Of a DNA stretch of 19,800 nucleotides, positions 1,387 to 19,800 are shown piece by piece. The DNA comes from a virus (lineage: Duplodnaviria; Heunggongvirae; Uroviricota; Caudoviricetes). The translations under genes and the position numbers were made by a program. Position 1 is the first letter of the stretch, and each line of letters opens with the position of its first letter. The DNA is taken from positions 1 to 19,800 of the IMG/VR virus record IMGVR_UViG_2609459834_000013; one strand, 5' to 3'. The notes below the pieces were generated by a model. It made no database searches. It was not told the origin of the DNA and was given only the letters and a program-made list of their open reading frames with translations.

Positions 1387-1388
1387 GT

Positions 1389-1631: not shown

Positions 1632-1927
1632 TGTTGGCTCCGTTTATCCGTTAAAAGGGATATCAGTTAAGTTATCCCGTGTAGGGTATAAGCCATTGTC
1701 GAGACCACTCATTGAATGGTCTCTGCAATAACCGATGTCTTTCCATCAGTCCGCCACCACAAAGAATCTTTTTTTGCCATAAGGCAGGAGGTTCATCTTT
1801 CAGTGGCTGCCAGTGTTATTTCCCCACTTACTGGCTTGGGTTGTTTCGTGGTACTGCCGTTAACTGGTGGCCCAGAATAAATTCCGGTTTCATTATCAAG
1901 CCCACCCGTAAATGGGCTTTGTAATGG

Positions 1928-2679: not shown

Positions 2680-2794
2680 AGCGTGTACCTACTCTTTGAA
2701 ATGAACCTTTGCCGCACAGGAAACCAGCCCACCGAGGCTCGCCAGCACTAACTGGTATCCTCAAAGGCCCATTCCAAAGGGGCAGGTTCGGTGT

Positions 2795-2820
2795 AAAAAA
2801 CATGCGTTGCGGTACGCATT
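2795..2820 (-). terminator. intrinsic terminator candidate (second of two after Rz)
   Basis: Minus-strand RNA AUGCGU-ACCGCA-ACGCAU followed by GUUUUUU; 6-bp stem. Coordinates approximate. Confidence 0.45.
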
Positions 2821-2821
2821 T

Positions 2822-2848
2822 ATTGCAAAAAGCCCCGCATCGCGAGGC
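2822..2848 (-). terminator. intrinsic terminator candidate directly downstream of Rz
   Basis: Minus-strand RNA AGCCUCGC-GAU-GCGGGGCU (7-8 bp stem with one G-U pair) followed by UUUUUGCAAU. Coordinates approximate. Confidence 0.5.
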
Positions 2849-2880
2849 TCATTAAATGGACTTTGTGATTTGCAAAAAAA

Positions 2881-3318
2881 TTATTTCAGGCATTGCGTCC
2901 TGATGTACTCCTGCAGGTAGTTAACCTGCGCGGTTATCCTGTCGATTCCACTTCGGAGACGGTAATAATTGAGTTCAGCATCTGCTGTAAGTCTTGGGCT
3001 TTCTCCATCGCCCATGCTGCTGGCTCCGGTCTTTGACTTTGCACAGGAGGCGGCGACTTGCAGCCGCTTACGCCCAGCAGAAACATCATCACGGAGACTT
3101 TCGATAGTCGCGTTAGCATCAGCAAGCTCCTTTGTATATCTGGCATCGAGTTCTGCTACGTCACGTTGACGCTTCTGCATGTCAGCGATGATGGATGTGG
3201 CTTTGTCGCGCTGCTCTTTGTAGGCGATGGCGTTATCACGGTAATGATTAACAGCCCATGACAGGCAGACGATGATGCAGATAACCAGAGCGGAGATAAT
3301 CGCGGTTACTCTGCTCAT
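2881..3318 (-). CDS. Rz: Rz i-spanin (145 aa)
   Basis: ORF track; N-terminal signal-anchor [31 protein letters not shown] matches lambda Rz as I recall it, then diverges; start overlaps R stop. Confidence 0.85.
2934..3119 (-). CDS. Rz1: Rz1 o-spanin lipoprotein embedded in the +1 frame of Rz
   Basis: Track ORF 2934..3146 contains [20 protein letters not shown] with lipobox and a proline-rich mature region ([16 protein letters not shown]). Start chosen at the internal Met (3119); a start at 3089 is also possible. Confidence 0.7.
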
Positions 3319-3791
3319 ACCTCAATATCTCTGACCGTTCCGCCAGCCTCTTTGAATTTTGCAATCAGGTTGTCAGCCTTATGCTCGAACTGGCCATAGC
3401 CAGCGCCCGGCAGTGAAGCCCAGATATTGCTGCAACGGTCGATTGCCTGACGAATATCACCGCGGTCAATCATCGGTAAAGCGCCACGCTCTTTAATCTG
3501 TTGCAATGCCACAGCGTCCTGGCTTTTCGGAGAGAAGTCTTTCAGGCCAAGCTGCTTACGATAGGCATCCCACCAACGGGAAAGAAGCTGATAGCGCCCG
3601 GCGGCTGTTGATTTGAGTTTGGGGTTTAGCGTGACAAGTTTGCGAGGGTGATCGGAGTAATCAGTGAATAGCTCTCCACCTACAATGACGTCATAACCAT
3701 GATTTCTGGTTTTCTGCCGTCCGTTATCAGTTCCCTCTGACCACGCCAGCATATCGAGGAACGCCTTACGTTGATTATTGATTTCCACCAT
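3315..3791 (-). CDS. R: endolysin R (lytic transglycosylase), 158 aa
   Basis: ORF track; sequence [39 protein letters not shown]… recognised as near-identical to lambda R. Confidence 0.95.
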
Positions 3792-4098
3792 CTTCTACTC
3801 CGGCTTTTTTAGCAGCGAAGCGTTTGATAAGCGAACCAATCGAGTCAGTACCGATGTAGCCGATGAACACGCTCGTTATATAAGCGAGATTGCTACTTAG
3901 TCCGGCGAAGTCGAGAAGGTCACGAATGAACCAGGCGATAATGGCGCACATCGTTGCGTCGATTACTGTTTTTGTAAACGCACCGCCATTATATCTGCCG
4001 CGAAGGTACGCCATTGCAAACGCAAGGATTGCCCCGATGCCTTGTTCCTTTGCCGCGAGAATGGCGGCTAACAGGTCATGTTTTTCTGGCATCTTCAT
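3775..4098 (-). CDS. S: holin S (S107/S105 dual-start), 107 aa
   Basis: ORF track; [43 protein letters not shown]… recognised as lambda S including the MKM dual-start motif. Confidence 0.95.
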
Positions 4099-4218
4099 GT
4101 CTTACCCCCAATAAGGGGATTTGCTCTATTTAATTAGGAATAAGGTCGATTACTGATAGAACAAATCCAGGCTACTGTGTTTAGTAATCAGATTTGTTCG
4201 TGACCGATATGCACGGGC

Positions 4219-4253
4219 AAAACGGCAGGAGGTTGTTAGCGCAACCTCTTGCC
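4219..4253 (-). terminator. strong hairpin / possible terminator between tR' and S
   Basis: 12-bp inverted repeat GGCAGGAGGTTG / CAACCTCTTGCC (one mismatch) with 6-nt loop; minus-strand RNA followed by GUUUUG. Coordinates approximate. Confidence 0.35.
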
Positions 4254-4390
4254 ACCCGCTTTCACGAAGCCAGCCATTGCGCTGGTTTTCTTTTATGCAA
4301 AGCACACCGCACCGTAGCCACAGCGGATAAGGTGATTATTTTTGTCTGTCTGGTATTTGGTTTGATGTGCTTTCAGAAAGGTCGTGATTA

Positions 4391-4424
4391 AAACGCAAAA
4401 AGCCCCGAGCTATTAACTCAGGGC
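4391..4424 (-). terminator. tR' intrinsic terminator of the short pR' leader transcript
   Basis: Minus-strand RNA GCCCUGAG-UUAAUAG-CUCGGGGC followed by UUUUUGCGUUUU, about 40-60 nt downstream of the pR' candidate. Confidence 0.7.
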
Positions 4425-4460
4425 TTTATTTAACGAGTGCATTTATCCATCGTTGAGTCA

Positions 4461-4489
4461 AATTTACCCAATCTTATTCAAAAAGTCAA
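4461..4489 (-). promoter_or_regulatory. late promoter pR' candidate (-35 TTGACT, 17-bp spacer, -10 TAAATT) with overlapping Q-utilisation region
   Basis: Hexamers read on the minus strand immediately downstream of Q stop; arrangement matches the lambda pR' location. Confidence 0.6.
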
Positions 4490-4531
4490 TATCATGCCGT
4501 TAATATGTTGCCATCCGTGGCAATCATGCTG

Positions 4532-5155
4532 CTAACGTGTGACCGCATTCAAAATGTTGTCTGCGATTGACTCTTCTTTGTGGCATTGCACCACCAGAGC
4601 GTCATACAGCGGCTTAACGGTGCGTGACCAGGTGGGTTGGGTAAGGTTTGGGATTAGCATCGTCACAGCGCGATATGCGGCGCTTGCTGGCATCCTTGAA
4701 TAGCCGACGCCTTTGCATCTTCCGCACTCTTTCTCGACAACTCTCCCCCACTGCTCTGTTTTTGCTATATCAACCGCACGGCCTGTACCGTGGCAATCTC
4801 TGCATCTTGCGCCCGGCGTCGCGGCACTACGGCAATAATCCGCATAAGCGAATGTTGCGAGCACTTGCAGTACCTTTGCCTTAGTATTTCCTTCGAGCTT
4901 TGCCACACCACGGTATTTCCCCGATACCTTGTGTGCAAATTGCATCAGATAGTTGATAGCCTTTTGTTTGTCGTTCTGGCTGAGTTCGTGCTTACCACAG
5001 AATGCAGCCATTCCGAATCCGGCTTGTGATTGCGCCATCCCCATAGCAGCCATCACATCAGTACCGGAAAGAGAGTCAGAAGCCGTAGCCCGTGGTGAGT
5101 CGCTCATCATCGGGCTTTTTGGCGAATGAAATTTAGCTACGCTTTCGAGTCTCAT
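4532..5155 (-). CDS. Q: late antiterminator Q (207 aa)
   Basis: ORF track; [34 protein letters not shown]… and the Cys-rich zinc-binding region recognised as lambda Q; start overlaps ninI stop. Confidence 0.95.
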
Positions 5156-5817
5156 GCGCCTTCTCCCTGTACCTGAATCAATGTGAGGTTTCCGCAGAAC
5201 ACTGCGCCGGTATCGATATACATCTGGTTGGCAAACTTGAGTGGTTTCACTGCTGGCGTATGACCAAAGATGAACGTGTCCGCACCTTTGATTTCTTTCA
5301 CGATCCCGTCTTGTGAGTTGCTGATTCGTTCGCGGTTCCAGATTACCTGCTGATGATCAACTGGTTTTCCAAACTCGTATTCGTCACAAGGATAATCGGC
5401 GTGGCAGATGACATATTTTTTATCTTTGCTCACCAGTTCGATGATTAACGGAAGTTCATCTGCTTTATGGGCAAGAGCTTTAGCCAGAATTTCTTTGTCG
5501 TAATCGAGATTAAAGAACCATCCACCGCCATTAAGCAGCCAGTGATTAACGTTTCCACGCTCTGATAAGCCATCAATCATCATTTGCTCATGGTTTCCAC
5601 GTACAGCTCTGAACCAGGGGAATGTGATTAATTCCAGGCATTCGACGTTCTCTGCACCACGATCAACCAAATCGCCCACCGAGATAAGCAGGTCTTTTTT
5701 GTTGTCGAATCCAATCGTATCCAGTTTGTTCATCAGGTTCGTGTAGCATCCGTGCAGATCGCCAACTACCCAAATATTTCGGTATTTGCTGCCATCAATT
5801 TTTTCGTAATAGCGCAT
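5152..5817 (-). CDS. ninI: Ser/Thr protein phosphatase (lambda ORF221 / NinI type), 221 aa
   Basis: Track ORF 5152..5892; metallophosphatase motifs GDLHGC, GDLVDRG, GNHE; start placed at internal Met [13 protein letters not shown] (5817), as in lambda. Confidence 0.85.
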
Positions 5818-6001
5818 CTCTTTCACTCCATCCGCGATGAACCATGAGAACGTCGTTGACGATGGCGTGCATTTTCCCGTCTTTATCATCAACGTATTTT
5901 CTGACCGTACCGCGACTACATTTCAGTCTGCGTGCTACTTCTGTCTGGTTTCCGTATGCTTCAACGAGCATGTCTGGAATGGTTTTTACTGAGAACGTCA
6001 T
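5795..6001 (-). CDS. ninH: NinH (68 aa)
   Basis: ORF track; size, sequence and position match lambda NinH as I recall it. Confidence 0.85.
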
Positions 6002-6609
6002 GCGGCCTCACTTCTGCTATTTCGCAGGTCTTTGAGTTTCTGTTGGTACTCTGCCTTGATCGCCTTGCACTCTTCGATAGTCCAGCGATGGCGGTTATGG
6101 TTTGATTCGATTTCGTCTACTGCTTCCTGCCCGATGCGGCTAATCAGTTCGACGCGATACGGAACGAGATTTCCGCTTTTGTGCTGGTTGCACACCACGC
6201 ATTGCTTGTGAATATTGCGTTCATCAAATCGGAGTTGAGGTGCCGCAGCAGTTGTCCGGTAATGTCCGGCATCCCACTGAGCAGACGTGAGCGTTCCGCA
6301 CGAGATACATGGTAAGTCGCGGTCTCTTTCTCTGATGAAGGCGTTTACGGCTTGTTGGGCTTGTTTAATCCAGTAACTGCGGGGCTTTAAGGCGAGTTTT
6401 CGAATCTTAAGTTTATCTTTCTGTTTCTGCTCCTCTCGTCGTCGTTTCTTCTCTGCTGCTTTTTCCGCTTTTTCGCGTTCTTTGCTTCGTCGTTCGAGTG
6501 CTATCTTGGTTCCACGCTCTGGAGAGCACCACCACTGATTAGCGAATGCAGGGTGAAACCATTCCCGGCATTCATCGTTTTTACATCGTCTTCGCGCTGG
6601 TTTAGCCAT
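5998..6609 (-). CDS. ninG: NinG (Rap) recombination protein, 203 aa
   Basis: ORF track; Cys-rich N-terminus and lysine-rich linker recognised as lambda NinG. Confidence 0.9.
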
Positions 6610-6878
6610 TATGGTTCACTCCAGTAATTCTCAATTGCAGCAGCCATTCTCTGCATCCACTCAGCCAGCTTTAACGCGGCTTCTCTTTCAGAACCACATT
6701 TAGGGAAATCCTTCATTTCCATGCTGGCCTTATATGTTCTGAATGCCAGGTCTCCGGTAATAACCAACTCCTGATCAAGCACCGAGCGTTTATTCCGGTG
6801 TTGAACGTAATAGACAAATTCAGTCCGCATTTCTTCTCTGTCTTTTTTGAAGGAAATAAGCTCAGAGAAATCACTCAT
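6609..6878 (-). CDS. hypothetical nin-region protein (89 aa)
   Basis: ORF track; ATG start overlapping ninF stop; no family recognised. Confidence 0.5.
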
Positions 6879-7047
6879 CGTCTTCTTCCTCGTACATTGA
6901 GCTATTCGGATCGCTCATCAGTTCTGCGCAGCAGTGCTCACACATGTGAACTTCCAGCACATGCAGCTTCTGACCGCAGTTAGCGCACGTTAAAGCCCGC
7001 TCGACGCTTTCTTTCTGGTATTGAATGGATTGGGATGGGCTAAGCAT
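6871..7047 (-). CDS. ninF: NinF (58 aa; below the ORF-track size cutoff)
   Basis: Hand translation of the minus strand gives [58 protein letters not shown], matching lambda NinF in its Cys motif and acidic tail. Confidence 0.7.
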   Translation of the reverse strand: MLSPSQSIQYQKESVERALTCANCGQKLHVLEVHMCEHCCAELMSDPNSSMYEEEDDE

Positions 7048-7408
7048 TATTGGCGTCCTGCATCATGAGAAAGACAATCATGGCGGCGCGGAGAACATTT
7101 TCATGCTCATGCTCCCAAATAGGGTTGGCAGAAGCACCGTGCAAACCGCTTTCGTTCCAGTCCCAGAGAATGTTAACTCCGTTATCAGCAATAATCGGCC
7201 ATGCGTCTGCTGGGTTTGCGCATGGGTTAAAGGATCCGCGCTCAACTTCTACTTCAACTGCGTCTCCGTTTACAATGTCTCCCTCAAATGAGATAAACAC
7301 CATCGCGCCATTCTCACCTTCTTTGTAATCCGGTGATCCGTTATGAATGGCTTCGAATACCGCCACGTTAATTTCAAAATCACTTAACTGTGAATAATCC
7401 ATTGTCAT
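7040..7408 (-). CDS. hypothetical nin-region protein (122 aa), possibly NinX-like
   Basis: ORF track; sits between ninE and ninF, where P22-type phages carry ninX; start overlaps ninE stop. Family assignment is from memory and weak. Confidence 0.5.
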
Positions 7409-7581
7409 TTCCTCGCACGTTCTCTAAGCCACCGGATATCCCACAGGTGAGCCGTGTAGTTGAAGGTTTTTACGTCAGATTCTTTTGGGATTGGCTTGCG
7501 TTTATTTCTGGAGCGTTTCGTTGGAAGGTATTTGCAGTTTTCGCAGATGATGTCGGTGAAACTTCGTCGCTGTCGCCTCAT
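7405..7581 (-). CDS. ninE: NinE (58 aa)
   Basis: Track ORF 7405..7671; internal Met [58 protein letters not shown] matches lambda NinE. Confidence 0.85.
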
Positions 7582-8105
7582 GCCGCCCTCCTGACGCCCT
7601 GCCCGATCGCCATCAATGCCGCTTTGGATACGGTAGTAAACATCCGTCGAGGACTGATGAACGGTCGCCAAATCAGCAGCATGGAGCCTTTGCTGTTTCC
7701 CTTCTTCTCCAGCCCTGTCGATGGTTCGATAAAATTAATCCGTCCATCAGTGATAATGCGAACTTCGTCGACACTCTCCAGAGCCTTGCTGAACCATCCG
7801 ACTGACATATCCTCTGGCACAAGCATAACTACCGTCTGTCGCTGTTGTATGCACTGCTCAGCGGCTTTTTCCACCCACGGCCTGATATTGCTGTACGGTG
7901 GGTTATTCCAGATTGCACCGTGGCTTATCCACTCAGAATTTAGCGCGTCGTCGACCTCAGTTAACCAGTGAGCGCACAGAGCATTTTTGTCGCTCGCTGC
8001 CGAATCCAGCCAGAATCCAAACTCAATATCCAGTGCATCAAAAAGCCAAAGCGGCGTTTGCCAGCAGTCCTTGTCGTGTGCTGGCGTATTTGATTTGATA
8101 GTCAT
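7578..8105 (-). CDS. phage DNA N6-adenine methyltransferase (orphan Dam type), about 175 aa
   Basis: Track ORF 7578..8165; NPPY catalytic motif (…[13 protein letters not shown]…); start placed at the Met overlapping ninB stop (ATGA). No adjacent restriction endonuclease. Confidence 0.7.
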
Positions 8106-8542
8106 GCAGCCCGATCTCCCCATCGCGCTTTCCATTCGAGAGCCAGTCGCGCTTCGTCTGACCACTTAACGCCACGCTCTGTACCGAATGCCTGTATAAG
8201 CTCTAATAGCTCCGCAAATTCGTTTACACGCATCCTGCTGGTTGACTGGCCTATTACCACAAAGCCATTCCCGGCAAGGTTAGGAACAACATCCTGCTGC
8301 TTTAATGCTGCGGTAAACACACACTTCCAGCTTTCTGCATCCAGCCAGCGACCATGCCATTCAACCTGACGAGAGACGTCACCAAGGCAAGCCCAAAGCT
8401 TTCGATTCTGGTCTAAGCTGCGGTTGCGTTCCTGAATGGTTACTACGATTGGTTTGGTTGGGTCTGGAAGGATTTGCTGGATAGCTTGAATGGCGTTCTG
8501 CTGATGGATGGGGCTTCTTAGTTCAAACGTTAGTTTCCTCAT
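8102..8542 (-). CDS. ninB: NinB (Orf) recombination mediator, 146 aa
   Basis: ORF track; near-identical to lambda NinB as I recall it (…PIVVTIQERNRSLDQNRKLWACLGDVSRQVEWHGRWLD…). Confidence 0.9.
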   Translation of the reverse strand: MRKLTFELRSPIHQQNAIQAIQQILPDPTKPIVVTIQERNRSLDQNRKLWACLGDVSRQVEWHGRWLDAESWKCVFTAALKQQDVVPNLAGNGFVVIGQSTSRMRVNEFAELLELIQAFGTERGVKWSDEARLALEWKARWGDRAA

Positions 8543-8759
8543 GGGATGAACTCCAGTTTGTGATGTTAAATTCCCATTTAATTACCTTTGCATACCCAAT
8601 TTTGAACCCATCAATACCTATCCACCGCTTGCCACTCCAATAAGCTGTGCCACTTTGCTTGAAATGATGTGGATGCCTAGATTGAGTGGTCACAGTTACA
8701 GGTAAATATGGCTTCGGGTATTCCCCATTCCCTGGATAACCAGATTTAATTTTGCTCAT
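8523..8759 (-). CDS. hypothetical protein (78 aa), AT-rich gene
   Basis: ORF track; ATG with purine-rich Shine-Dalgarno (GAGAGAGG); overlaps upstream gene stop and ninB start; visibly AT-rich compared with neighbours. Confidence 0.5.
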   Translation of the reverse strand: MSKIKSGYPGNGEYPKPYLPVTVTTQSRHPHHFKQSGTAYWSGKRWIGIDGFKIGYAKVIKWEFNITNWSSSHEETNV

Positions 8760-9094
8760 TGATACCCTCTCTCACTTAATCGCCTCCACGCTTCGTTAAA
8801 CTCTTCTCGAGTTGCGCCGGATTTTCTTTCTTCAAACATCATGCATTCGCTGATGTCTCCCCATGACTTTGGTCGCTTTTCAGCGAACAGATCATCCCAT
8901 TCGAATACCCAGCGGCCTGATTTTCGGCAGTGGTAAATGGTCAGCCATGTTGTGCTGTTCGCTGGATACCCATAGAGAACTTCGACTTTTTGATCACGGT
9001 CTTTATGCTTTTTCAGCAGGATAAAGCCAGCAACCAGCGAAGCTCCGGCAAGAATGATGATTGGAATTTGCCAGTCAGCCACACTCCCCCCCAA
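8756..9094 (-). CDS. hypothetical small membrane protein (about 108-112 aa; non-ATG start)
   Basis: ORF track; N-terminal hydrophobic helix IPIIILAGASLVAGFILL followed by KKHKDRDQ; start codon is TTG (9094) or GTG (9082) and neither has a convincing Shine-Dalgarno. Confidence 0.35.
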   Translation of the reverse strand: MGGSVADWQIPIIILAGASLVAGFILLKKHKDRDQKVEVLYGYPANSTTWLTIYHCRKSGRWVFEWDDLFAEKRPKSWGDISECMMFEERKSGATREEFNEAWRRLSERGYQ

Positions 9095-9123
9095 ATAAAA
9101 AGGCCTGCGATTACCAGCAGGCC
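9093..9123 (-). terminator. intrinsic terminator candidate downstream of the helicase gene
   Basis: Minus-strand RNA GGCCUGC-UGGUAAUC-GCAGGCC followed by UUUUUAUUU, 27 bp after the helicase stop. Confidence 0.5.
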
Positions 9124-9149
9124 TGTTATTAGCTCAGTGATGTAGATGG

Positions 9150-10526
9150 TCATACGTCAGCCCCTTGTGCATATCTTCTGCCACGCGCAGCAGGTGCATT
9201 TGATGTTGTGCAAATCTGTCTGGCTTCATCCTGGTCACATGCCACAAAGTGTCCGTTGCAGAATCGCTGGTAAACCGTACCAAGTGAGCCAAAACGGTTT
9301 TTCGTCACGATGATTTCAGCAAATGGCGCGGCGCTACTGTTCTCGTCATATACCGCTTCCCGATAGAGCATGATGATTGAGTCTGCGTCCTGCTCAATGC
9401 TTCCTGAATCACGCAAATCTGCGTTTGTCGGGCGTTTGTTTGGTCGCTTCTCAACATCGCGCGAAAGCTGACTCAGGGAGATAACTGGCGTTTTCAGGTC
9501 TTTCGCCATCGCCTTCAGGCTTCCGGAGATGTGAGCAATTGCGAGGTCGTTGCGATCTGCTTTCGGCTTCTCAATCAGGCCAAGATAATCCGCCATGATG
9601 AGTGACAGGTTTGGATTTTCCTGTTTGTGCCGTTCTGCGATTGAGCGAATTTCTTCGACAGATAACCGCGAGGCATCGACTACCCATACATCCAAATCTG
9701 CAAGCTGACTCATGCCGTTAGCAACGCGCGCCCAGCCTTCGTCATCCATCGATGCAGGATTTCGCAGCACGCTAACCGACATCCTCCCGGCGTTGGCAAT
9801 GCTTCGCTCTGCAATCTGCAATGCGCTCATTTCCATCGAGAAAATCAATACTCCGCGCCGGACGTCAGAACCAGGAATAACGCGACTTGCAACGCCTTCG
9901 GCAATCTTCAGCGCCAGTTCGGTTTTCCCCATACCAGGACGAGCGGCGATTATCACCAGGTCTTCCGCGTTCATCCCTCCGGTGATAGCGTCAAGTTCTT
10001 CGATTCCGGTCTTCAGGGTATCGGACTCTTCTCCGTTCCTCAGACGCCTGTCAAGCGTGTCAGTGTAGTCGGTGATGATTTCCCCTAACCGTACAGGTTT
10101 AACCTCGTCACGGGGCTTTCTGATGGCTGAAAGACGCTTTACAAGCTCATCCATCGCCTGACTCGATGTATCGATAGTTCCGTTCTGAATTGGTTCGCGC
10201 ATTTCATCCATGATTTCCAGCACCAGACGGCGGTGATAGTTATCCGCGACCATTCCGGCATATCCCTTCAGGTTTGCGGCACTCGGGCAGTTCTTACTGG
10301 TCATCAGGATTGACGTGAAATGCTCCTCTCCGCACGCCTCGGCAACCATCAGCGCGTCGATTAGGTTTCTGTTTCTCGCCTGCTTGCGGATAACCTCGAA
10401 GGCTTTCCGGTAGAGCGGAATTGAAAACGCTTCCGGCTCAAGCGTTGCCAGAACGTCACTGGCGGTTGGAGTTAATCCACCAATCAGCAGGCCACCGATA
10501 ACGCTCGCTTCGATATCCTGTCTCAT
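9150..10526 (-). CDS. replicative DNA helicase, DnaB family (P22 gene 12 type), 458 aa
   Basis: ORF track; Walker [14 protein letters not shown], Walker B-like LIMADYLGL and other DnaB-type motifs; overlaps the initiator gene stop. Confidence 0.85.
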
Positions 10527-11353
10527 GCAATCCCCCTGTCTGCAAACTTCCCTTCCCGAACTCCCGTTAACGAGTCTTCTCTCAGCAGGTAATCAAAATC
10601 AGCCGTCCAGCCCGTGTCGTTGTCTCCGAAGTAAAACGGCTTGGCCTGATGCACAAACGCCCTGACATACGCTCTGAAACCGTCCACGTTTGGCGTTTTC
10701 AGTTGCGGAATGATTTTCTTCAGGCGACGTTTGCGTTTCTCGTTGACCGCAACAGCGTGTGGCAGTCTGTCACCGACTTCGGTGTTGTAGGCGTTCAGGA
10801 AGGATTCATAGTCGATTCGTTCTGCCTTGCGACGTTCAGGTTTAACCTGCCCATCGCCGCCCCCGTTAGGGGGTAAGGGGGTATTTGTATTTATTGTCTT
10901 TTGTATATTGTCTTTTGTGTTTGACTGATTCGGTAAATTGCTTTTTACCGATTTGGTGAAGGTTTGTTTTACCGAATTGGTAAATGTTTTACCGAATCCG
11001 TTAACTTTCGTTTTCCACTCGGAAATGTTTGTATTCATACCAACTTGACGCCCCACCTGAATGAGAACTCCCATTCTGATAAGCTCGTTTTTGGCGGTAG
11101 AGCATTTGGTTGGTGCCATGCCAGTGAGTTCAGCGAACTGTTCGTTTCCGATCCAATCTATTTTTTTGTTGTAACCGTATGTCTTGCGCCACACAGCCAT
11201 AACAATCAGTAACTGATGTAGAGTAAGTCCAGAAAGCATGGCGGCTTCTAACAGTGTGTTTGCAGTCCGAGTGTAGCCATCTTCGAGTTCTGCCACGCGA
11301 TGCTCCACGACCTCCAGTTGAGGCCTGTAATCAGCTAACTTAACGACGCCCAT
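10523..11353 (-). CDS. replication initiator with lambda O-type N-terminal DNA-binding domain (276 aa)
   Basis: ORF track; N-terminal region resembles the O-protein N-terminal domain; the low-complexity middle ([30 protein letters not shown]…) is encoded by the iteron/AT-rich DNA, as in lambda ori. Confidence 0.8.
10925..11005. repeat. origin of replication iterons (about four copies of TTTTACCGAAT-n-GGTAAA-like 18-20 bp repeats) with adjacent AT-rich tract (about 10875-10920)
   Basis: Repeats read directly in the sequence, spaced about 22 bp apart inside the initiator gene, followed in the gene's direction by an AT-rich stretch. Coordinates approximate. Confidence 0.65.
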
Positions 11354-11501
11354 GTTTCACTCCTGCTTTGGCTAGTCTGTAAACACCAACAAGGCGCTCT
11401 GCGAACGCCCTGTTATTTGCTGCGGCTACCACTAATCCCTCAGGTGAATCAGGGTGTCGAATCTCTTCTTTTTCCTGGTATTTCTTACGACGTTTTGTCA
11501 T
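11340..11501 (-). CDS. small hypothetical ORF (53 aa; below the ORF-track cutoff) between cII and the initiator gene
   Basis: Hand translation [53 protein letters not shown]; ATG preceded by AGGAGT Shine-Dalgarno; 3' end overlaps the initiator start. Confidence 0.35.
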   Translation of the reverse strand: MTKRRKKYQEKEEIRHPDSPEGLVVAAANNRAFAERLVGVYRLAKAGVKHGRR

Positions 11502-11535
11502 AATGACTCCTGTGGATTGATCCAGTCTTTCTACA

Positions 11536-11817
11536 TCAGGCCTCGAAGAATTCGCCGTTCTTCGGGGCTTTTTCTTTTGTCAGGTAATTGGCAAGCCGCT
11601 TAGTCAGCTCAGCCATTTCATCGTCTTCGATTCCGTATTCCAGAACAGCCAGCATCATGCTTACCTGCGAGAAGAAACCATTCTTCCATCGGCTTACCTG
11701 ATATTCAGGAACCCCCATCGCTCGAGCGAATGTCTTCTGCCCCATCAGTGCCAGTTTGTTCAGCAAGGCTGACTCGATGCGAGCCGCTTTCTTGCTTTTA
11801 GTTGCAATAGTACCCAT
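11536..11817 (-). CDS. cII: CII transcriptional activator homolog (93 aa)
   Basis: ORF track; …RIESALLNKLALMGQKTFARAMGV…QVSRWK…MLAVLEYGIEDDEMAEL… aligns with lambda CII as I recall it; AAGGA Shine-Dalgarno upstream. Confidence 0.8.
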   Translation of the reverse strand: MGTIATKSKKAARIESALLNKLALMGQKTFARAMGVPEYQVSRWKNGFFSQVSMMLAVLEYGIEDDEMAELTKRLANYLTKEKAPKNGEFFEA

Positions 11818-11893
11818 AGATAATTTCCTTAATGATTAGATAGAGTTGGCTTCGCAAAGAAACGCAAAACCATAGAGATTTGTTTCTGGTAAT

Positions 11894-11925
11894 GCCCTTT
11901 TTCAGGGCGGTGATGTGTAAGAGCG
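11894..11925 (-). promoter_or_regulatory. nutR (boxA CGCTCTTACACA, boxB GCCCTGAAAAAGGGC)
   Basis: Read on the minus strand directly after the cro stop; matches the lambda nutR boxA/boxB sequences from memory. Confidence 0.75.
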
Positions 11926-11933
11926 GGAATGTC

Positions 11934-13286
<1,353 letters not shown>

Positions 13287-13336
13287 TCCTCACCTCAATT
13301 TCGACAACCAAAAAACAAACTATTTTCCGTTTAAAA

Positions 13337-13409
13337 ACAATGGAGTTTGTTTTTCACGCCCATTTTTACAATATTTCTTGTTTACAACATACAATCTTTC
13401 TTGTAATTT
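13337..13409 (+). promoter_or_regulatory. OL operator region (three ACAA-n6-TTGT sites) overlapping pL candidate (-35 TTTACA, 17 bp, -10 TAATTT)
   Basis: Sites ACAATGGAGTTTGT, ACAATATTTCTTGT and ACAATCTTTCTTGT at about 13337-13350, 13368-13381 and 13391-13404; promoter hexamers at about 13381-13386 and 13404-13409 face N. Confidence 0.7.
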
Positions 13410-13449
13410 TAAGCCATCAGCAGGACGCACTAACCACCATTGAAGGTGA

Positions 13450-13480
13450 GGCTCTTAAAAATTTAGCCCTGAAGAAGGGC
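13450..13480 (+). promoter_or_regulatory. nutL (boxA-like GCTCTTAAAAA, boxB GCCCTGAAGAAGGGC)
   Basis: Read directly upstream of N; matches lambda nutL boxB from memory. Confidence 0.75.
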
Positions 13481-13590
13481 AGCATTCAAAGCAGAAAGCT
13501 TTGAGTAGCGCGAAATGCAGCTGCAAGACAGCAACCGTGGAGATAAGCATCACGGCGCGTTACTCAAAGCTAACTGACAGGAGAATCCAG

Positions 13591-14488
<898 letters not shown>

Positions 14489-14611
14489 TTAAAAGACAGG
14501 CATACTAATAAACACTGCACTGTGTATTCATTCCAACGAGTGAATACACGGAGCAATGTCGCTCGTAACTAAACAGGAGCCGACTTGTTCTGATTATTGG
14601 AAATCTTCTTT

Positions 14612-14639
14612 GCCCTCCAATGTGAGGGCAGTTTTTTTT
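14612..14639 (+). terminator. intrinsic terminator (tL1-like) on the pL strand
   Basis: GCCCTC-CAATGT-GAGGGC hairpin followed by AG and a run of eight T, 13 bp before the next start codon. Confidence 0.7.
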
Positions 14640-14652
14640 GACGGAGTAAACG

Positions 14653-14901
14653 ATGATAAAAACTGATTACCCTGCAGATCTTAAACAAAAAGTAATAACA
14701 GCAATTAAATGCTCTTTTATCTCATGTCGTACAGATGAAGAACGATATGTCGTTGAGTGTGCAATTGTCGAGTTTCTCACAGCGATGGAGTTTACCGCTG
14801 CAGAATCAATAGATGTATTAAAGCAATCAGACGGAAATGATATTGAAACGGATGATGTTATTGACCGACTAATAAAATCATTCGAAGAAGAAATAGAGTA
14901 G
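14653..14901 (+). CDS. hypothetical small acidic protein (82 aa; about 20 Asp/Glu versus 9 Lys/Arg)
   Basis: ORF track; GGAG Shine-Dalgarno 8 nt upstream; AT-rich; sits where lambda carries ral. Confidence 0.55.
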   Translation: MIKTDYPADLKQKVITAIKCSFISCRTDEERYVVECAIVEFLTAMEFTAAESIDVLKQSDGNDIETDDVIDRLIKSFEEEIE

Positions 14902-14984
14902 CCGCCTGAGCGCGGCTTTACCGCATACCAATAATGCTTCACGAGAGGCATTTTCGTTATGCAATCAAATATAAGGAGTTACCC

Positions 14985-15119
14985 ATGATGCACTTTCAGC
15001 TCGCGGGTAGCGGCGTCATGTCCGCTTTCTACCCGCACGAATCAGAATTATCACGCCGAGTTAAACAATTAATCAGAGCAGCAAAGAAACAACTGGAGGC
15101 GTTATGCGCAATGAAATAG
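14985..15119 (+). CDS. cIII: CIII-like protein (FtsH inhibitor family), 44 aa
   Basis: Track ORF 14934..15119; start placed at the ATG after an AAGGAG Shine-Dalgarno; core …PHESELSRRVKQLIRAAKKQLEAL resembles lambda CIII core …PSESLLERITRKLRDGWKRLIDIL. Confidence 0.55.
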   Translation: MMHFQLAGSGVMSAFYPHESELSRRVKQLIRAAKKQLEALCAMK

Positions 15120-15256
15120 CCATTAATCACCAGATGCTTCGTGCTGCACAGAACAAAGCAGTAATAGCCCGATTTATTGGTGATTCAAAAATGTGGCTTG
15201 AAGCAAATAAAGCGATGAAATCAGCTATCAATCTTCCGTGGTATCGCAGGAAATGA
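15104..15256 (+). CDS. kil: Kil-like small protein (50 aa; below the ORF-track cutoff)
   Basis: Hand translation MRNEIAINHQMLRAAQNKAVIARFIGDSKMWLEANKAMKSAINLPWYRRK*; GGAGG upstream; the FIGD-containing segment resembles lambda Kil as I recall it. Confidence 0.45.
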   Translation: MRNEIAINHQMLRAAQNKAVIARFIGDSKMWLEANKAMKSAINLPWYRRK

Positions 15257-15411
15257 GTTTTACAGATAACTGGTCAGACGAAGAATTCATTCGTCAGATG
15301 AAAGAATTAATCGATAACGAAGGAGATATTCATGTCACTTGCAACCACAGTGAAGGAGAGCAAGTTACAGAGACGCATGTACACGCAGAAAGCTCTCTGG
15401 TATCGCCATAA
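15253..15411 (+). CDS. small hypothetical ORF (52 aa)
   Basis: Hand translation MSFTDNWSDEEFIRQMKELIDNEGDIHVTCNHSEGEQVTETHVHAESSLVSP*; start overlaps the kil-like stop (ATGA). Confidence 0.3.
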   Translation: MSFTDNWSDEEFIRQMKELIDNEGDIHVTCNHSEGEQVTETHVHAESSLVSP

Positions 15412-15512
15412 TGGCGACCGCGAAGGAATGCGGGTATGCCTTAATTTGTCCCGAGTAGAAGTATTAAATCAGCGTTATTTCCTTGGGCCATGTCCATTCT
15501 GAGAACAATCAT

Positions 15513-16118
15513 ATGAGCAAAGAATTTTACGCAAGGCTGGCAGCTATTCAGGAGAATCTGAACGCGCCAAAGAATCAATACAACTCATTCGGCAAATATA
15601 AATACAGAAGCTGCGAAGACATTCTTGAGGGTGTTAAGCCGTTACTGAATGGCCTGTTTTTATCAATCAGCGATGAAGTTGTGTTGATTGGTGATCGGTA
15701 TTACGTGAAAGCCACGGCAACTATTACTGATGGCGAAAACAGTCATACAGCAACCGCTCTTGCACGAGAGGAAGAAAGCAAGAAAGGAATGGATTCTGCA
15801 CAAGTTACGGGAGCTACAAGCTCTTATGCACGCAAGTATTGCCTCAATGGTTTGTTCGGCATTGATGATGCGAAAGATGCAGATACAGACGAGCATAAAC
15901 ATCAGCAGAACGCAGCAGCAAAGCAATCAAAACCATCACCTACACCTGAACAGGTTCTAAAAGCATTCACTGACGCAGCATTGCAGAAAAACACCGTGGA
16001 AGAGCTTAAACAGGCGTTCGCCAAAGCGTGGAAGATGCTCGAAGGCACACCGGAGCAGCAAAAAGCGCAGGACGTTTACAACATCAGACGAGACGAATTA
16101 GAAGGGGCGGCTGCTTAA
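15513..16118 (+). CDS. erf: Erf-family single-strand annealing protein (about 201 aa)
   Basis: Track ORF 15483..16118 (TTG-extended); from Met MSKEFYARLAAIQENLNAPKNQYNSFGKYKYRSCEDILEGVKPLL… resembles P22 Erf. Confidence 0.8.
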   Translation: MSKEFYARLAAIQENLNAPKNQYNSFGKYKYRSCEDILEGVKPLLNGLFLSISDEVVLIGDRYYVKATATITDGENSHTATALAREEESKKGMDSAQVTGATSSYARKYCLNGLFGIDDAKDADTDEHKHQQNAAAKQSKPSPTPEQVLKAFTDAALQKNTVEELKQAFAKAWKMLEGTPEQQKAQDVYNIRRDELEGAAA

Positions 16119-16501
16119 TGGCACATTCGATTACTGTAAGACTAAACAAGCCCGCAAGAGAGTTTCAGGCCGGGGAAAATATCGGATTCAACATCCGTGC
16201 TGGAGTTCAGTATTACGATCGCCAGACAAAAAAGAAAGAATGGACAAACTACAGCGCCGTTGTATTTGCCAAGCCGGGAGCGCAAGCGGATTACTACCGT
16301 AGTGTTCTTGTTGAAGGTGGCATTGTTGAAATTACCGGAGAAAACATCAGGGTTGATATTTATCAGGGGCAAAATGGTCAATCAATCACTCTTGAATTAC
16401 TGAATGCAAAGATTGGATTTGCAGCTTCAGGAAATGGCCCGCAGCAGCAAAGTAGTAACCAGCAGAACACTCCTGTATACGACGATTCCATCCCATTCTG
16501 A
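16118..16501 (+). CDS. ssb: single-stranded DNA-binding protein (short phage SSB with acidic DDSIPF tail), 127 aa
   Basis: Track ORF 16028..16501; start at the Met overlapping the erf stop (TAATG); C-terminal …PVYDDSIPF resembles the SSB protein-interaction tip. Confidence 0.7.
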   Translation: MAHSITVRLNKPAREFQAGENIGFNIRAGVQYYDRQTKKKEWTNYSAVVFAKPGAQADYYRSVLVEGGIVEITGENIRVDIYQGQNGQSITLELLNAKIGFAASGNGPQQQSSNQQNTPVYDDSIPF

Positions 16502-16524
16502 TTTAGAAAAATAAGGATTTAATT

Positions 16525-16821
16525 ATGCCAGCGCCTTTGTATGGCGCGGATGACCCGCGCCGCTGTTCCGGCAATTCCGTATCGGAGGTGCTGGATAAAT
16601 TCAGAAAAAACTACGATCGAATAATGTCTCTACCGCAGGAAACGAAAGAGGAAAAGGAATTTCGCCACTGTATATGGCTTGCAGAGAAAGAAGAACGCGA
16701 GCGAATTTACCAGACATCAATCCGACCATTCCGCAAAGCCACTTATACCCACTTCCCTGAATATATCGACCCGCGCCTGCGTAATTACCGCTCACGCTAT
16801 GGCGCTATCAGTAATGACTGA
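16525..16821 (+). CDS. hypothetical protein (98 aa)
   Basis: ORF track; AAGGA Shine-Dalgarno upstream. Confidence 0.5.
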
Positions 16822-16831
16822 GGAATTTACC

Positions 16832-16996
16832 ATGAGAGGACTTGCATACAATCCCGGCATTCTTCCGGCAGAAATGATTATTCGCCAACGCGTAAAGCCA
16901 ATGCCATCGAGAGAGGAATTACTTAAGAGAAATTCTTTTCCATCAGTGAATCAAAACAAATATCTGAATGCGATGTTGCGGAGTGGGAAGAAATGA
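16832..16996 (+). CDS. small hypothetical protein (54 aa)
   Basis: Internal Met of track ORF 16679..16996 preceded by TGAGGAA Shine-Dalgarno; stop overlaps the next gene start. Confidence 0.35.
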
Positions 16997-17517
16997 AACA
17001 AATGTCACTAATTGAGATGGATGGTTTTCTGAAAGGTAAATGCATCCCACGAGATTTAAAGGTTAACGAAACAAACGCTGAATATCTGGTGCGCAAGTTC
17101 GGTGAGCTTGAATCAAAACTGGAAACGGCGTTGCGGGAGTGTCGTTCTGCTGGAATCACGATTGATAACCTTGAGGCTAAATGCGCGAAGATGGCTGCTG
17201 AAAATACCTCGCTTAAGCAATCTGAGAAGGAATTTAATGACTTTTGTCGTGAGGAGTTTAGCGAATGGGAAGATGATGTTACTGAAACCCCGACCACCGA
17301 CGCCTTCCTGGCTGAAGTGCGGGCCAGCGCGGTAGAAGAGGCTTGCCTGAAAATTAGCAACGCCATCGTTAATTGCTATCAGGACGAACAAATCGGTCTT
17401 GATGCGGCAGCAACTATCTGCGGGGACTTCGCCGCCCAACTTCGCCAGGATGCCAACACCGCAGAACTGGTAGCCGCTGGAATCATCACTAAGGTGGGGG
17501 GGGTAGGGTATGGCTGA
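16993..17517 (+). CDS. hypothetical protein with predicted coiled-coil region (174 aa), ea-region type
   Basis: ORF track; translationally coupled to both neighbours. Confidence 0.5.
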
Positions 17518-17782
17518 GTTTACGAAAGAGCAGTTGATTGAGAAGCTTGAGCGCCGTCTTGCGGTAACAACCCATTACCCTGATGTTGAAGAAGCGCAAC
17601 TCGATGCGCAAATCTTCAAAATCGCACTGGCAGTGCTGACGGCTGATGCATCCATGTACGCCAGTGAAGAGACGTTAATCTGTGCGGAACAAGGTGAGTT
17701 TCTCTTGCGCACCCTAAACAGACCAGCTGGTGACGCCACTATCCCACTCTACCGCCTACCACTGCTGGAGGGATTGAAATGA
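17510..17782 (+). CDS. hypothetical acidic protein (90 aa)
   Basis: ORF track; overlaps both neighbours. Confidence 0.5.
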   Translation: MAEFTKEQLIEKLERRLAVTTHYPDVEEAQLDAQIFKIALAVLTADASMYASEETLICAEQGEFLLRTLNRPAGDATIPLYRLPLLEGLK

Positions 17783-18750
17783 TGGAATTGACCAAAGAGC
17801 GCATTGAACAATTCATTAAAAGCCCGATTGATAACGGGCTTACTCGCAGCGAACAGATGTCGATGGCCCGCCAGCTGCTTGCAGTGATGGAGCAGGAGCC
17901 AGTTGGTGAAGTGGTTTTGGGTGATTACGACGACTGCGGTGATTATCCTGATGCAAAAGTCGTATGTATTGCCGCGCAAGGTCAGGCCGACTGGAATAAT
18001 TTCAGAAACGAAACGAAGCTCTACGCAGCAACACAGTTACCGCAGCCAGCGGTGGTGGTGAGTGAAGCGCAGTCCAAAAAATTATTCGATGAGTGGTCTT
18101 GTGGCGATGGCGCGTTAGGTGAGTTAAGGGCAAGCGGCGTTCCAGATGAATTTATCTCTATGCTGAAGGAGTTTTCCCTTGCTACATGGGAGGCCTGCCG
18201 CGAAGCGATGCTTAAGCACTCCGCACCATTCATAGTGACGAGCGATCATCGCATGATGGAGATGCCCGCGATCCATGATATCGACGCTGTCTCCGCCATG
18301 CTTCAGGGTGCCGATGCATCCATCACACATGAGGGTAAGAACCATCACAAGGATAAGCTCGCTATGGTTGACCATTCCGGTGACTCCAACAATATGGTTG
18401 AACCTGTAACGACGACTTACAAGTTACCATTCGAGCAGTGGCTTTCTAAGCAGACAGGAACCATTGACGTCGAATGTGGATGCGTGATGACGGAGGTATT
18501 TTACCACTGGCTGCGCGTTGCGTATGAGGCTGGCAACTCTCCGGTAACTCCTGATGGTTGGATAAGCTGTAGTGAGCGAATGCCAAGCGAAGAAGATGTT
18601 TTGGTTTATTGCTCAGACACAAAAGAGCAGATGGTAGGGTTTCACAAAGGGAAAGGGTTATTTCAATTCTTTTACATGAATGGTGTTGAGGGGGTATGTG
18701 AGCCGTCACACTGGATGCCGCTACCAGAACCGCCGCAGGAGATGAAGTAA
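17779..18750 (+). CDS. hypothetical protein with C-terminal DUF551-like domain (323 aa)
   Basis: ORF track; C-terminus …GWISCSERMPSEEDVLVY…HWMPLPEPP resembles the DUF551 domain common in enterobacterial prophages (from memory). Confidence 0.55.
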   Translation: MMELTKERIEQFIKSPIDNGLTRSEQMSMARQLLAVMEQEPVGEVVLGDYDDCGDYPDAKVVCIAAQGQADWNNFRNETKLYAATQLPQPAVVVSEAQSKKLFDEWSCGDGALGELRASGVPDEFISMLKEFSLATWEACREAMLKHSAPFIVTSDHRMMEMPAIHDIDAVSAMLQGADASITHEGKNHHKDKLAMVDHSGDSNNMVEPVTTTYKLPFEQWLSKQTGTIDVECGCVMTEVFYHWLRVAYEAGNSPVTPDGWISCSERMPSEEDVLVYCSDTKEQMVGFHKGKGLFQFFYMNGVEGVCEPSHWMPLPEPPQEMK

Positions 18751-19028
18751 TGGACTCCTTCGCGAAATATACGATTATTGACTGGATTGCCTTCCTTCAG
18801 GTTTTGCTCATCTGGTTTTATATGGCTTACAGGAGTGGACAGTGGATTGTCAGTGTAGCCTGTAGCAAGGGATGGCGTTGGTGGAACCGAAAGAATAAAA
18901 AAGCGCTGGCCTTGGATTCGTTTTACGAAGCATTCAATCTTAACAGTCTTCAGCCTGGTTCTGTCATTGTAGTCACCACTCAAAGCGGCATGACCATTCA
19001 GATTCATAAACCAAAAGAGGAAAAATGA
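18750..19028 (+). CDS. hypothetical small membrane protein (92 aa)
   Basis: ORF track; hydrophobic N-terminal segment IIDWIAFLQVLLIWFYMAY; coupled to the upstream gene. Confidence 0.45.
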   Translation: MDSFAKYTIIDWIAFLQVLLIWFYMAYRSGQWIVSVACSKGWRWWNRKNKKALALDSFYEAFNLNSLQPGSVIVVTTQSGMTIQIHKPKEEK

Positions 19029-19114
19029 TGTGGCCTATATGTGTTAATTGCGGACGGATGTGCCTATCTGGATGGTGCAGAAAGTGCGACAAATGCACGA
19101 AGAAAAGACAATAA
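19025..19114 (+). CDS. small Cys-rich peptide (29 aa; possible zinc ribbon)
   Basis: Hand translation MMWPICVNCGRMCLSGWCRKCDKCTKKRQ*; start overlaps the upstream stop (ATGA). Confidence 0.3.
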   Translation: MMWPICVNCGRMCLSGWCRKCDKCTKKRQ

Positions 19115-19148
19115 CAATCCTCGAACTCGCGGGGATTTCTTTTATCTG

Positions 19149-19173
19149 AACTCGCTACGGCGAGTTTTGTTTT
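19149..19173 (+). terminator. intrinsic terminator candidate
   Basis: AACTCGC-TACG-GCGAGTT hairpin followed by TTGTTTT. Confidence 0.55.
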
Positions 19174-19186
19174 ATGGAGACAAGAA

Positions 19187-19531
19187 ATGTCAGATTTGGC
19201 TATGAAGGTTTTGAAATGGCAATCGACTGGCGATGTTGGCATCAGTAGCGCAACTCTTACCTCAATCGCATGTGGACTGAAAAAGAATATCTATGGTCAT
19301 CACTTCGGCGCTCCCCATGACGCAGCAGACTTCCGGCGATGCGTTGCACTTGTTGAGCAGATTCCAGAAATCAGAGATTCATTCGACAAGGTTGCAAAGC
19401 GCGTTCCGGCATTCAAAGGAATCCTCAACGAATGGGATTCACTCGTTGCTCTGTTGAAGTCTGAAATGAAGATACACGGAAACAAAGCACCAGAGACTTA
19501 CAGAAGAATTAGCGAGCTACGCAAGGACTAA
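19187..19531 (+). CDS. hypothetical protein (114 aa)
   Basis: ORF track; GGAG Shine-Dalgarno upstream; lies between two terminator-like hairpins. Confidence 0.5.
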   Translation: MSDLAMKVLKWQSTGDVGISSATLTSIACGLKKNIYGHHFGAPHDAADFRRCVALVEQIPEIRDSFDKVAKRVPAFKGILNEWDSLVALLKSEMKIHGNKAPETYRRISELRKD

Positions 19532-19608
19532 CGCCTCACACTCGATGAGGCCTGTACATATCTGATAGATCCGCTATATGGCGGTTTCTTTTTGCCTGGA
19601 GAATTAAG

Positions 19609-19800
19609 ATGACCGATACCAGCCTGATTCCTGAGAAAGAAGTGATGAACAAGCTCGGTGTTTCATCACGTCAGACAATCTGGAACTATACCAAACGGCA
19701 CGGATTTCCGAAGCCAGTCAGAACCCACCCCAAATCATACCTTCGTGAAGCTGTTGAGGGGTGGATTCTTAACGGTGGCGTTAATCAGAAATGCTCCTGA
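19609..19800 (+). CDS. xis: excisionase-like DNA-binding protein (AlpA/Xis-type HTH), 63 aa
   Basis: ORF track; …KEVMNKLGVSSRQTIWNYTKRHGFPKPV… resembles AlpA/excisionase-family proteins; sits at the end of the pL operon where xis precedes int (int would be beyond the window). Confidence 0.55.
   Translation: MTDTSLIPEKEVMNKLGVSSRQTIWNYTKRHGFPKPVRTHPKSYLREAVEGWILNGGVNQKCS

Follow-up and report, generated by a model that had tools for sequence, protein, structure and literature searches.

Introduction

In lambdoid phages, the stretch between the recombination genes and xis is portrayed in published work as early, non-essential and mosaic, and as shifting lysogenisation and induction (PMC10834534, PMC4776307); the former paper also describes the Ea22-type proteins as mosaic, with one variant carrying a DUF551 domain (PMC10834534). 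The closest described counterparts of the locus considered here are the exo-xis region of lambda and the Shiga toxin (Stx) phages, the "ea" genes of P22, HK97 and HK022, the anti-RecBCD protein Abc2 of P22, and ORF114 of phage 434. The locus itself is an array of eight genes (16525-19531, + strand) in the tailed phage record IMGVR_UViG_2609459834_000013 of IMG/VR, of which positions 1 to 19,800 were analysed; this whole 19,800-nt stretch is referred to as the window. A preliminary description made from the sequence had regarded the array as an operon of uncharacterised genes between ssb and xis.

Compared with the exo-xis region of lambda and the Stx phages, the array lies in the same slot, from the recombination genes to xis, would be part of the same early N-dependent operon, and shares its non-essential and mosaic character, so that the earlier assignment to the delayed-early, non-essential "ea" region of a lambdoid phage is upheld. 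A tandem terminator sequence is common to the array and lambda. The gene content is different: Erf and Abc2 are encoded in the window, not Exo, Bet and Gam; none of the eight array proteins matches orf60a (DUF1317), orf63 (DUF1382), orf61 or ea8.5 in Pfam or PHROG; and the 174-amino acid (aa) protein of the array fails the Ead/Ea22 Pfam model. DNA and protein matches connect the array with the genomes of P22, HK97 and HK022, the "ea" genes of which include EaA, EaD and EaE as well as HK97 gp37 and gp38. The abc2-DUF2737 (gp38) pair of HK97 and a gp37-like 174-aa gene recur in the window, whereas the window's combination of 174-, 90- and 323-aa genes is found on a single E. coli contig only. 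ORF114 of phage 434, HK022p30 and gp03 of Stx2-1717 are orthologues of the 114-aa gene in the same place by xis; to these, the present analysis adds the size of the family, its conserved residues and a confident structural model without a fold match in the PDB. From this comparison and the operon context detailed below, the region very probably represents the promoter-distal end of the early-left (PL) operon in a lambdoid temperate phage of the HK97/HK022/P22 type, the accessory genes of which would be expressed in an N-dependent manner.

Gene Layout and Operon Context

The eight + strand genes are bounded by a gene for a single-stranded DNA-binding (SSB)-like protein on one side and an AlpA/Xis-like gene on the other. 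Both the open reading frame (ORF) listing and the reading of the sequence place the ORFs where they had been reported before, and the flanks that had been named ssb and xis are borne out by matches to phrog_44 (single-strand DNA binding protein, 1.5e-26) and phrog_66 (1.9e-8), respectively. The SSB-like gene (16118-16501, +) has no Pfam match. The AlpA/excisionase-like helix-turn-helix (HTH) gene at the array end (19609-19800, +) has a Pfam AlpA score of 0.0032, which is under the cut-off, and integrase genes are located 3' of its homologues in Sf101 and E. coli LR-24. Successive array genes are spaced by +10, -4, -8, -4, -1, and -4 nt, followed by +72 nt to the 114-aa gene; the six tight junctions thus consist of one 10-nt gap and five overlaps of 1-8 nt. 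Given these short gaps and overlaps, translational coupling is plausible throughout. Minus-strand ORFs of the region (76-147 aa) have no PHROG support except for one short weak match and were rejected as spurious for want of family support. No RNA family was found in an Rfam scan of the whole window, and NCBIfam gave zero matches for the array proteins.

The phages HK446, HK544, Sf101, and HK97 are about 97% identical to the window over 44-65% of its length, with the same gene order. A cI-type repressor (HTH and S24 peptidase), cIII, and Kil are encoded on the + strand 5' of the array, as is a lambda-type N antiterminator (13501-13914, +; Pfam PF11438 N36, 2.5e-26). The nutL boxB is an exact GCCCTGAAGAAGGGC at 13466-13480 (+) and a nutR-type boxB is an exact GCCCTGAAAAAGGGC at 11894-11908 (-), with 0 matches expected in shuffles for either; both are taken by us to be lambda boxB, from established knowledge of the lambda nut sites. 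The presence of cI, N, cIII and Kil together with exact nutL and nutR boxB in the window is the reason for which the array is regarded as the N-antiterminated distal PL operon.

Between the seventh and the eighth gene, tandem intrinsic terminators are found (19116-19176, +), consisting of hairpins at 19116-19137 and 19148-19167 with a T-run after each. Their joint fold has a free energy of -22.9 kcal/mol, a stability reached by 0 of 200 shuffled sequences (z = -3.96). Their sequence is near-identical to that between ea8.5 and lambdap35 in lambda, which is presumably the terminator tL3; the papers found give no coordinates. In the divergent IMG/VR locus L046 both hairpins are kept with different stem sequences.

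Abc2 and the Recombination Module

The first gene of the array (16525-16821, +) encodes a 98-aa protein that is Abc2, anti-RecBCD protein 2. It matches Pfam PF11043 over its full length (4.3e-62; 206.8 bits at a cut-off of 25), with residues 1-98 corresponding to profile positions 1-97 of 97, and has further matches to phrog_656 (7.8e-57) and to P22 Abc2 in the PDB entries 8b1t/8b1u (1.4e-56 over residues 1-98). In the structure of P22 Abc2, Pro68 is modelled in the active site of PpiB, and Abc2 is thought to redirect RecBCD so that Erf is loaded instead of RecA (PMC9836394). This proline is kept in the window protein, which reads SIRP68F at that position and resembles P22 Abc2 from end to end. 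Gene 1 is thus assigned, by homology to P22 Abc2, as a P22-type RecBCD hijacker.

The functional partner of Abc2, the single-strand annealing recombinase Erf, is encoded on the same strand two genes 5' of abc2 (15483-16118, +; Pfam PF04404 ERF, 2.4e-44), in the order known from P22-type recombination modules. As erf and the SSB-like gene lie directly 5', abc2 constitutes the end of the recombination module and not the start of an operon of unknowns. The arrangement differs from that of P22 in that the SSB-like gene is located between erf and abc2; in P22 this place is presumably taken by abc1. The array is, therefore, not a coherent operon of unknowns, and the preliminary description was partly right in its interpretation: gene 1, counted among the uncharacterised genes, is a studied modulator of RecBCD with a well-known function, and the only protein of the array in a well-characterised family, whereas four others do belong to named families of unknown function (DUF2737, DUF551, DUF4752, and a PHROG). 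Abc2 itself is an instance of what had been proposed for the region, i.e., a reservoir of host-takeover and anti-defence functions.

The ORF114 Family and the ~510-bp Module

The last gene of the array (19187-19531, +) encodes the 114-aa protein of an all-alpha family, and is equated in RefSeq notes with ORF114 of phage 434 and HK022p30. Relatives retrieved by a word-indexed search are enterobacterial only and all annotated as hypothetical. Exhaustive phmmer comparison with 1.84 billion cluster representatives yielded 1,803 representatives at E<=1e-3, 155 at E<=1e-10. When one genome for each GTDB species was scanned with a degenerate pattern, 79 loci were obtained, 77 of which contain a bona fide family member. 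These members derive from Acidobacteriota, Bacteroidota, Proteobacteria, Actinobacteria, Chloroflexi, Patescibacteria, and a metagenome-assembled genome of Methanoperedens. In 164 sequences, each less than 70% identical to the query, the positions W11, G18, S20, S21, P43, D45, D48, R51, C52, P60, and W83 are 97-100% conserved, and L55 is conserved to 94%. The AlphaFold2 (AF2) model, calculated from a 56-sequence alignment, comprises seven helices and has a predicted local distance difference test score (pLDDT) of 96.2 and a predicted template modelling score of 0.89. It has no fold match in the PDB; in BFVD it finds uncharacterised homologues only, one of them from a Clavibacter phage. Neither Pfam nor NCBIfam nor the PDB sequences contain a match for ORF114, profile searches included. 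The conserved polar set of Ser-Ser, Asp, Asp, Arg, and Cys suggests a pocket.

No fixed partner gene of ORF114 was found when 361 neighbour ORFs were clustered, no cluster occurring in more than four loci, and the Pfam families of 137 immediate neighbours are scattered among phage early and DNA-metabolism functions, including DNA methylases, DUF1064, DUF551, DUF5131, dUTPase, YopX, and recombinases. In rare fusions, the ORF114 domain is preceded by an Ea22-type coiled coil or an "Ea" N-module; for the fused domains of the longer family members, no Pfam match was obtained. The taxonomic spread, the variable phage-like neighbourhoods, and the rarity of fusions together characterise ORF114 as a widespread, unnamed, stand-alone early-gene domain. 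Among single proteins of the family, P0342, P0147, and P0135 from E. coli contigs are single-instance hybrids of the ORF114 domain, or its C-terminal part, with an Ea22-type coiled coil or an N-module of the form MxxITKERIE...LASLE; they illustrate ongoing recombination, and some of them may be non-functional. The metagenomic protein P0221 (333 aa) contains two tandem ORF114-type domains, the first of which is degenerate, with the Ser-Ser pair lost and the DPxDFxRC motif altered.

Many Stx phages match the window from ~19110 to 19620 only, from which it follows that the 114-aa gene moves together with the tandem terminators on its 5' side and the hairpins on its 3' side. The best explanation is that the gene and the terminators on either side of it form a module of ~510 bp that is mobile on its own and was inserted just 5' of xis. 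The downstream element (19533-19594, +) contains a hairpin and a terminator-like site (19571-19584, then a T-run); its fold has a z of -1.05, which is not significant alone. Of the earlier claim that a terminator is followed by a 114-aa gene flanked by hairpins, the upstream part is borne out by the tandem terminators, and the downstream hairpin is weaker. Upstream of the 114-aa gene (19115-19187), no sigma-70-like promoter was detected in a consensus scan, which misses weak promoters or those of other types.

The Cys-Rich Micro-Gene

Directly 5' of the tandem terminators, a Cys-rich micro-gene (19028-19114, +) encodes a putative zinc-knuckle microprotein of 28 aa, or of 29 aa if translation begins at 19025; it is identified by its tblastn relatives and their conserved pattern, and has no Pfam or PHROG family match. 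Copies that are 64-76% identical in tblastn, mostly unannotated, are found in unrelated phages, namely Escherichia phage C1 (Deseoctovirus), Salmonella virus KFS-SE2 (Skatevirus), and Citrobacter phage Tr1 (Stephanstirmvirinae). It is annotated in few records only, an example being HK106 gp30 (YP_007151700.1), a 29-aa hypothetical protein that is the same micro-ORF. To our knowledge, the conservation of this gene in Deseoctovirus, Skatevirus, and Stephanstirmvirinae phages, which carry it unannotated, has not been noted before. Scanning IMG/VR with a degenerate DNA pattern yielded 77 loci, of which one is an obvious chance match. A second pattern, in which the N-terminus was left unspecified, retrieved 38 metagenome loci, and since all of these encode an MWPIC start, the second ATG, at 19028, is taken as the start codon. 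The Cys-rich peptide of the preliminary description is thus present, its length most likely being 28 aa instead of 29.

The consensus is MWPIC-xx-CGRMC-xxx-WC-xx-CDK, with a length of 24-29 aa and five conserved Cys residues. Two CxxC knuckles (C5-x2-C8 and C17-x2-C20) as well as C12 are kept in nearly all variants; the exceptions are three singletons, one of which is frameshifted and two of which have a Cys substitution. On codons outside the search pattern, the proportion of synonymous differences (pS) is 0.89, i.e., near saturation, and that of nonsynonymous differences (pN) is 0.27, and the resulting pN/pS of 0.31 indicates purifying selection. The micro-gene follows at least five unrelated upstream genes, the stop codon of which is overlapped by its start by one base in nearly all distinct contexts; on its 3' side there is, depending on the context, either a terminator or an overlapping next gene. 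These start overlaps and varied 3' contexts favour a functional protein over a leader ORF, and the micro-ORF represents a real, mostly unannotated gene family.

Some of the contexts may be described further. In C1 and KFS-SE2, the micro-gene comes last in its series of genes, ahead of a terminator, and faces a head morphogenesis gene. In a group of IMG/VR contigs of ~47-50 kb (L019, L024, L027, L032, L038, L042, L064, and L071), it is located directly 3' of a gene for a protein of ~74 aa ending in ...PGCQTCAECQG...NKQRGM, which contains a CxxC...CxxC motif and is possibly TraR/DksA-like.

Alternative Explanations

Two features of the 3' end of the array invite other readings. The 114-aa gene might be a moron, that is, a terminator-insulated cassette with its own promoter in the lysogen and a benefit for the host such as exclusion or defence; the terminator-like hairpins on both of its sides, the movement of the ~510-bp unit among otherwise different phages, and the position by xis/int at the prophage end, where morons are common, would agree with this. 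We consider it improbable in view of the lack of a sigma-70-like promoter in 19115-19187, where the distance from the T-run of the second terminator to the start codon is only 20 nt, and of the absence of a PADLOC match for the 114-aa protein. In addition, ORF114 relatives elsewhere lie among phage early and DNA-metabolism genes and not at prophage ends, they have no fixed partner, and the rare Ea22-type coiled-coil fusions (P0342) place ORF114 among the early effector modules. For the 28-aa ORF, a leader-type role can be envisaged, in which translation up to a stop codon 1-2 nt before the hairpin controls termination and the protein as such is non-functional. The micro-ORF stop (19112-19114) does abut the first hairpin (19116), and in phages C1 and KFS-SE2 the stop codon likewise precedes a terminator. 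However, the peptide itself is conserved (five Cys, W2, P3, GRM, W16, and DK) despite near-saturated synonymous sites, and in Citrobacter phage Tr1 and the IMG/VR contigs of 47-50 kb an overlapping gene follows the micro-ORF in place of a terminator, which makes a leader very improbable.

That the array or part of it, for instance DUF4752 with the Cys-rich peptide, constitutes an anti-phage defence or toxin-antitoxin system of the prophage appears extremely improbable. Defence genes are frequent in variable prophage regions, and DUF4752 and the micro-ORF are a translationally coupled pair of small proteins, but DUF4752 is missing from at least four other contexts of the micro-ORF, virulent phages included, and the two are therefore not an obligate pair. 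Moreover, the array genes are part of a lytic early operon instead of being under lysogenic control, and PADLOC returned nothing significant for any of the eight proteins, the best E values being 0.03-0.04 for short partial matches. The reading of the array as a distal PL operon segment, in which both unnamed genes would encode early proteins, is thus preferred.

Accessory Genes between abc2 and the Micro-Gene

The second gene (16832-16996, +) encodes a small basic DUF2737 protein (54 aa, isoelectric point 11) that matches Pfam PF10930 (4e-31; 107.1 bits at a cut-off of 25) and phrog_1117. DUF2737 is present in 698 phage records according to tblastn, virulent Salmonella siphoviruses among them. 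It is followed by the gene for the acidic 174-aa protein (16993-17517, +; phrog_614, 3e-55), for which Pfam returns only weak coiled-coil noise, e.g., ZapB at 0.025, so that a coiled-coil character is only hinted at. No PDB chain matches it at E<=0.01, the best being an unrelated mitoribosomal protein at 0.021. Its identification as Ead/Ea22 was rejected: PF13935 is not listed at E<=10, and the best BLASTP match to lambda Ea22 has an E of 0.029 over 31 aa.

The 90-aa protein (17510-17782, +) contains an alternative "Ea" N-terminal module, its residues 4-47 being 75% identical to the N-terminus of P0030 (E 4e-19). Weak phrog_660/5117 matches are common to it and the 323-aa protein, while direct BLASTP comparison of the two found no similarity. 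The link is an indirect one, via the DUF551 protein P0030, in which an N-module of the 90-aa type is joined to a DUF551 body. The 323-aa protein (17779-18750, +) is a mosaic of several modules and ends in DUF551 at residues 260-320 (Pfam PF04448, 2e-19; 70.6 bits at a cut-off of 22), in line with the DUF551-like C-terminal domain named earlier. Its alignment with 36 relatives reveals a beads-on-a-string arrangement of modules that are individually swapped among the relatives. The motifs at the module junctions are LASLEAEPV, LYAAPQLPQPAV, WNACRAAMLQGA, EPVTTxYKLPFEQWL, and HWMPLPxxPQQE; these short, highly conserved peptides recur between modules that are otherwise unrelated, and they resemble favoured sites of recombination at which modules are exchanged. 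A precomputed database annotation lists PF26207 for three relatives of the 323-aa protein (P0006, P0007, and P0022); the local Pfam copy, which may lack some of the newest models, gave nothing for P0006.

The AF2 model of the 323-aa protein has a mean pLDDT of 56, and a fold search with the whole model is therefore not meaningful. Ordered parts are an N-terminal helical hairpin (1-40), a helical middle domain (95-148), and the small beta domain of DUF551 (260-320), the latter with a weak resemblance to Tudor/SH3-like barrels (Foldseek, E >= 0.045). DUF551 is a portable C-terminal module, as in variant V2 of Ea22 and in MazZ-type fusions (PMC10834534). For YfdS of the cryptic prophage CPS-53, the reported phenotypes are H2O2 sensitivity and, together with YfdQR, suppression of replication initiation (PMC4776307). 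The 323-aa protein shares with YfdS and other DUF551 proteins the DUF551 domain that makes up its last 60 residues, whereas its N-terminal 250 residues consist of unrelated modules.

The gene preceding the micro-gene (18750-19028, +) encodes a 92-aa DUF4752 protein (Pfam PF15944, 2.4e-36; 124.1 bits at a cut-off of 27). Residues 8-26 are its single hydrophobic stretch (mean Kyte-Doolittle value 1.78) and are predicted to form a membrane helix; the protein is the small membrane protein of the preliminary description, probably with a single pass. Its cluster has 627 members, on at least 1000 contigs. A literature search on DUF2737, DUF4752, and ORF114 retrieved nothing relevant.

The combination of these genes is a rare one. 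Among phage records and complete E. coli genomes, coverage of 16400-19800 stays below 80%, and for 16990-18750 it does not exceed 31% in any of 5,426 complete E. coli genomes. For each of the 174-, 90-, and 323-aa proteins, a single E. coli contig of 37,303 bp is the only record of the exact sequence.

Other Genes of the Window

Outside of the array, several genes of the immunity and early-left regions may be mentioned. A 158-aa gene (12810-13286, +; phrog_2651, 6.9e-59) is located directly 3' of cI, before OL/PL. In lambda, the slot between cI and OL/PL is occupied by rexA/rexB, and on account of this position the 158-aa gene is a candidate for an exclusion or defence gene expressed in the lysogen. 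A 167-aa gene (13907-14410, -; phrog_1244, 4.6e-53; no Pfam match) opposes the PL operon between N and an anti-restriction gene; its product has a C-terminal CxxC...CxxC motif, a bidirectional terminator-like hairpin (14411-14433) adjoins it, and the arrangement is moron-like. The HK446 homologue of this protein is annotated as similar to HK620p16. The anti-restriction gene (14653-14901, +) encodes an 82-aa protein with a full-length match to phrog_14587, "anti-restriction protein" (2e-48), and is the second named anti-defence gene of the operon. Just 5' of erf, a 57-aa protein (15238-15411, +) matches phrog_2123, "recombinase", which is an odd label for a protein of such size.

Proposed Pathway

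Upon infection or induction, transcription would start from PL, with nutL as the site at which the lambda-type N protein modifies it. The PL transcript would comprise cIII, kil, erf, the SSB-like gene, the array up to the tandem terminators at 19116-19176, and thereafter the 114-aa gene, xis, and int, the latter lying outside the window; the tandem terminators would be passed by N-modified polymerase only. The array genes would be translationally coupled via their overlapping stop and start codons. Abc2 would bind RecC, and the host RecBCD, instead of degrading linear phage DNA, would then assist recombination by Erf. The genes for DUF2737, the 174-, 90-, and 323-aa proteins, DUF4752, and the microprotein would be non-essential accessories built by module shuffling. 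Their products are most likely small binders of host factors that would tune takeover and the lysis-lysogeny decision, by analogy with the exo-xis genes of lambda and the Stx phages.

Several points weigh against this scenario. Read-through of the terminators, and with it the timing of expression, is inferred from N and the nut sites, and the PL promoter itself was missed by the consensus scan. The lambda exo-xis cassette is absent, and hence the phenotypes known from lambda and the Stx phages are not transferable gene by gene. The 174-aa protein fails the Ead/Ea22 Pfam model. For six of the eight genes, the role of a host-factor binder is a class-level guess, the biochemical roles of all proteins other than Abc2 being putative.

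Conclusions

As a whole, the array is the kind of mosaic accessory segment that textbooks describe for lambdoid prophages, here one of E. coli; it changes nothing in the general picture, and the recognition of Abc2 removes some of its mystery. It is rather unlikely, yet conceivable, that the two dark components, ORF114 and the microprotein, are new types of effectors. In that case, ORF114 might be a small enzyme of a new type or a sponge, with a universal component of host or defence as its target, its polar set resembling a catalytic or ligand pocket more than an interaction surface; the peptide of 24-29 aa might bind zinc, be exchanged among temperate and virulent phages of enterobacteria, and be directed at a conserved factor of the host. 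The ORF114 family is very widespread and has no name, Pfam model, or solved relative; it offers candidate active-site residues and is present in hundreds of sequenced E. coli prophages, those of the Stx type among them. Within the array, it is the two unnamed families that merit follow-up, and either of them could prove to be a host-takeover or counter-defence factor.

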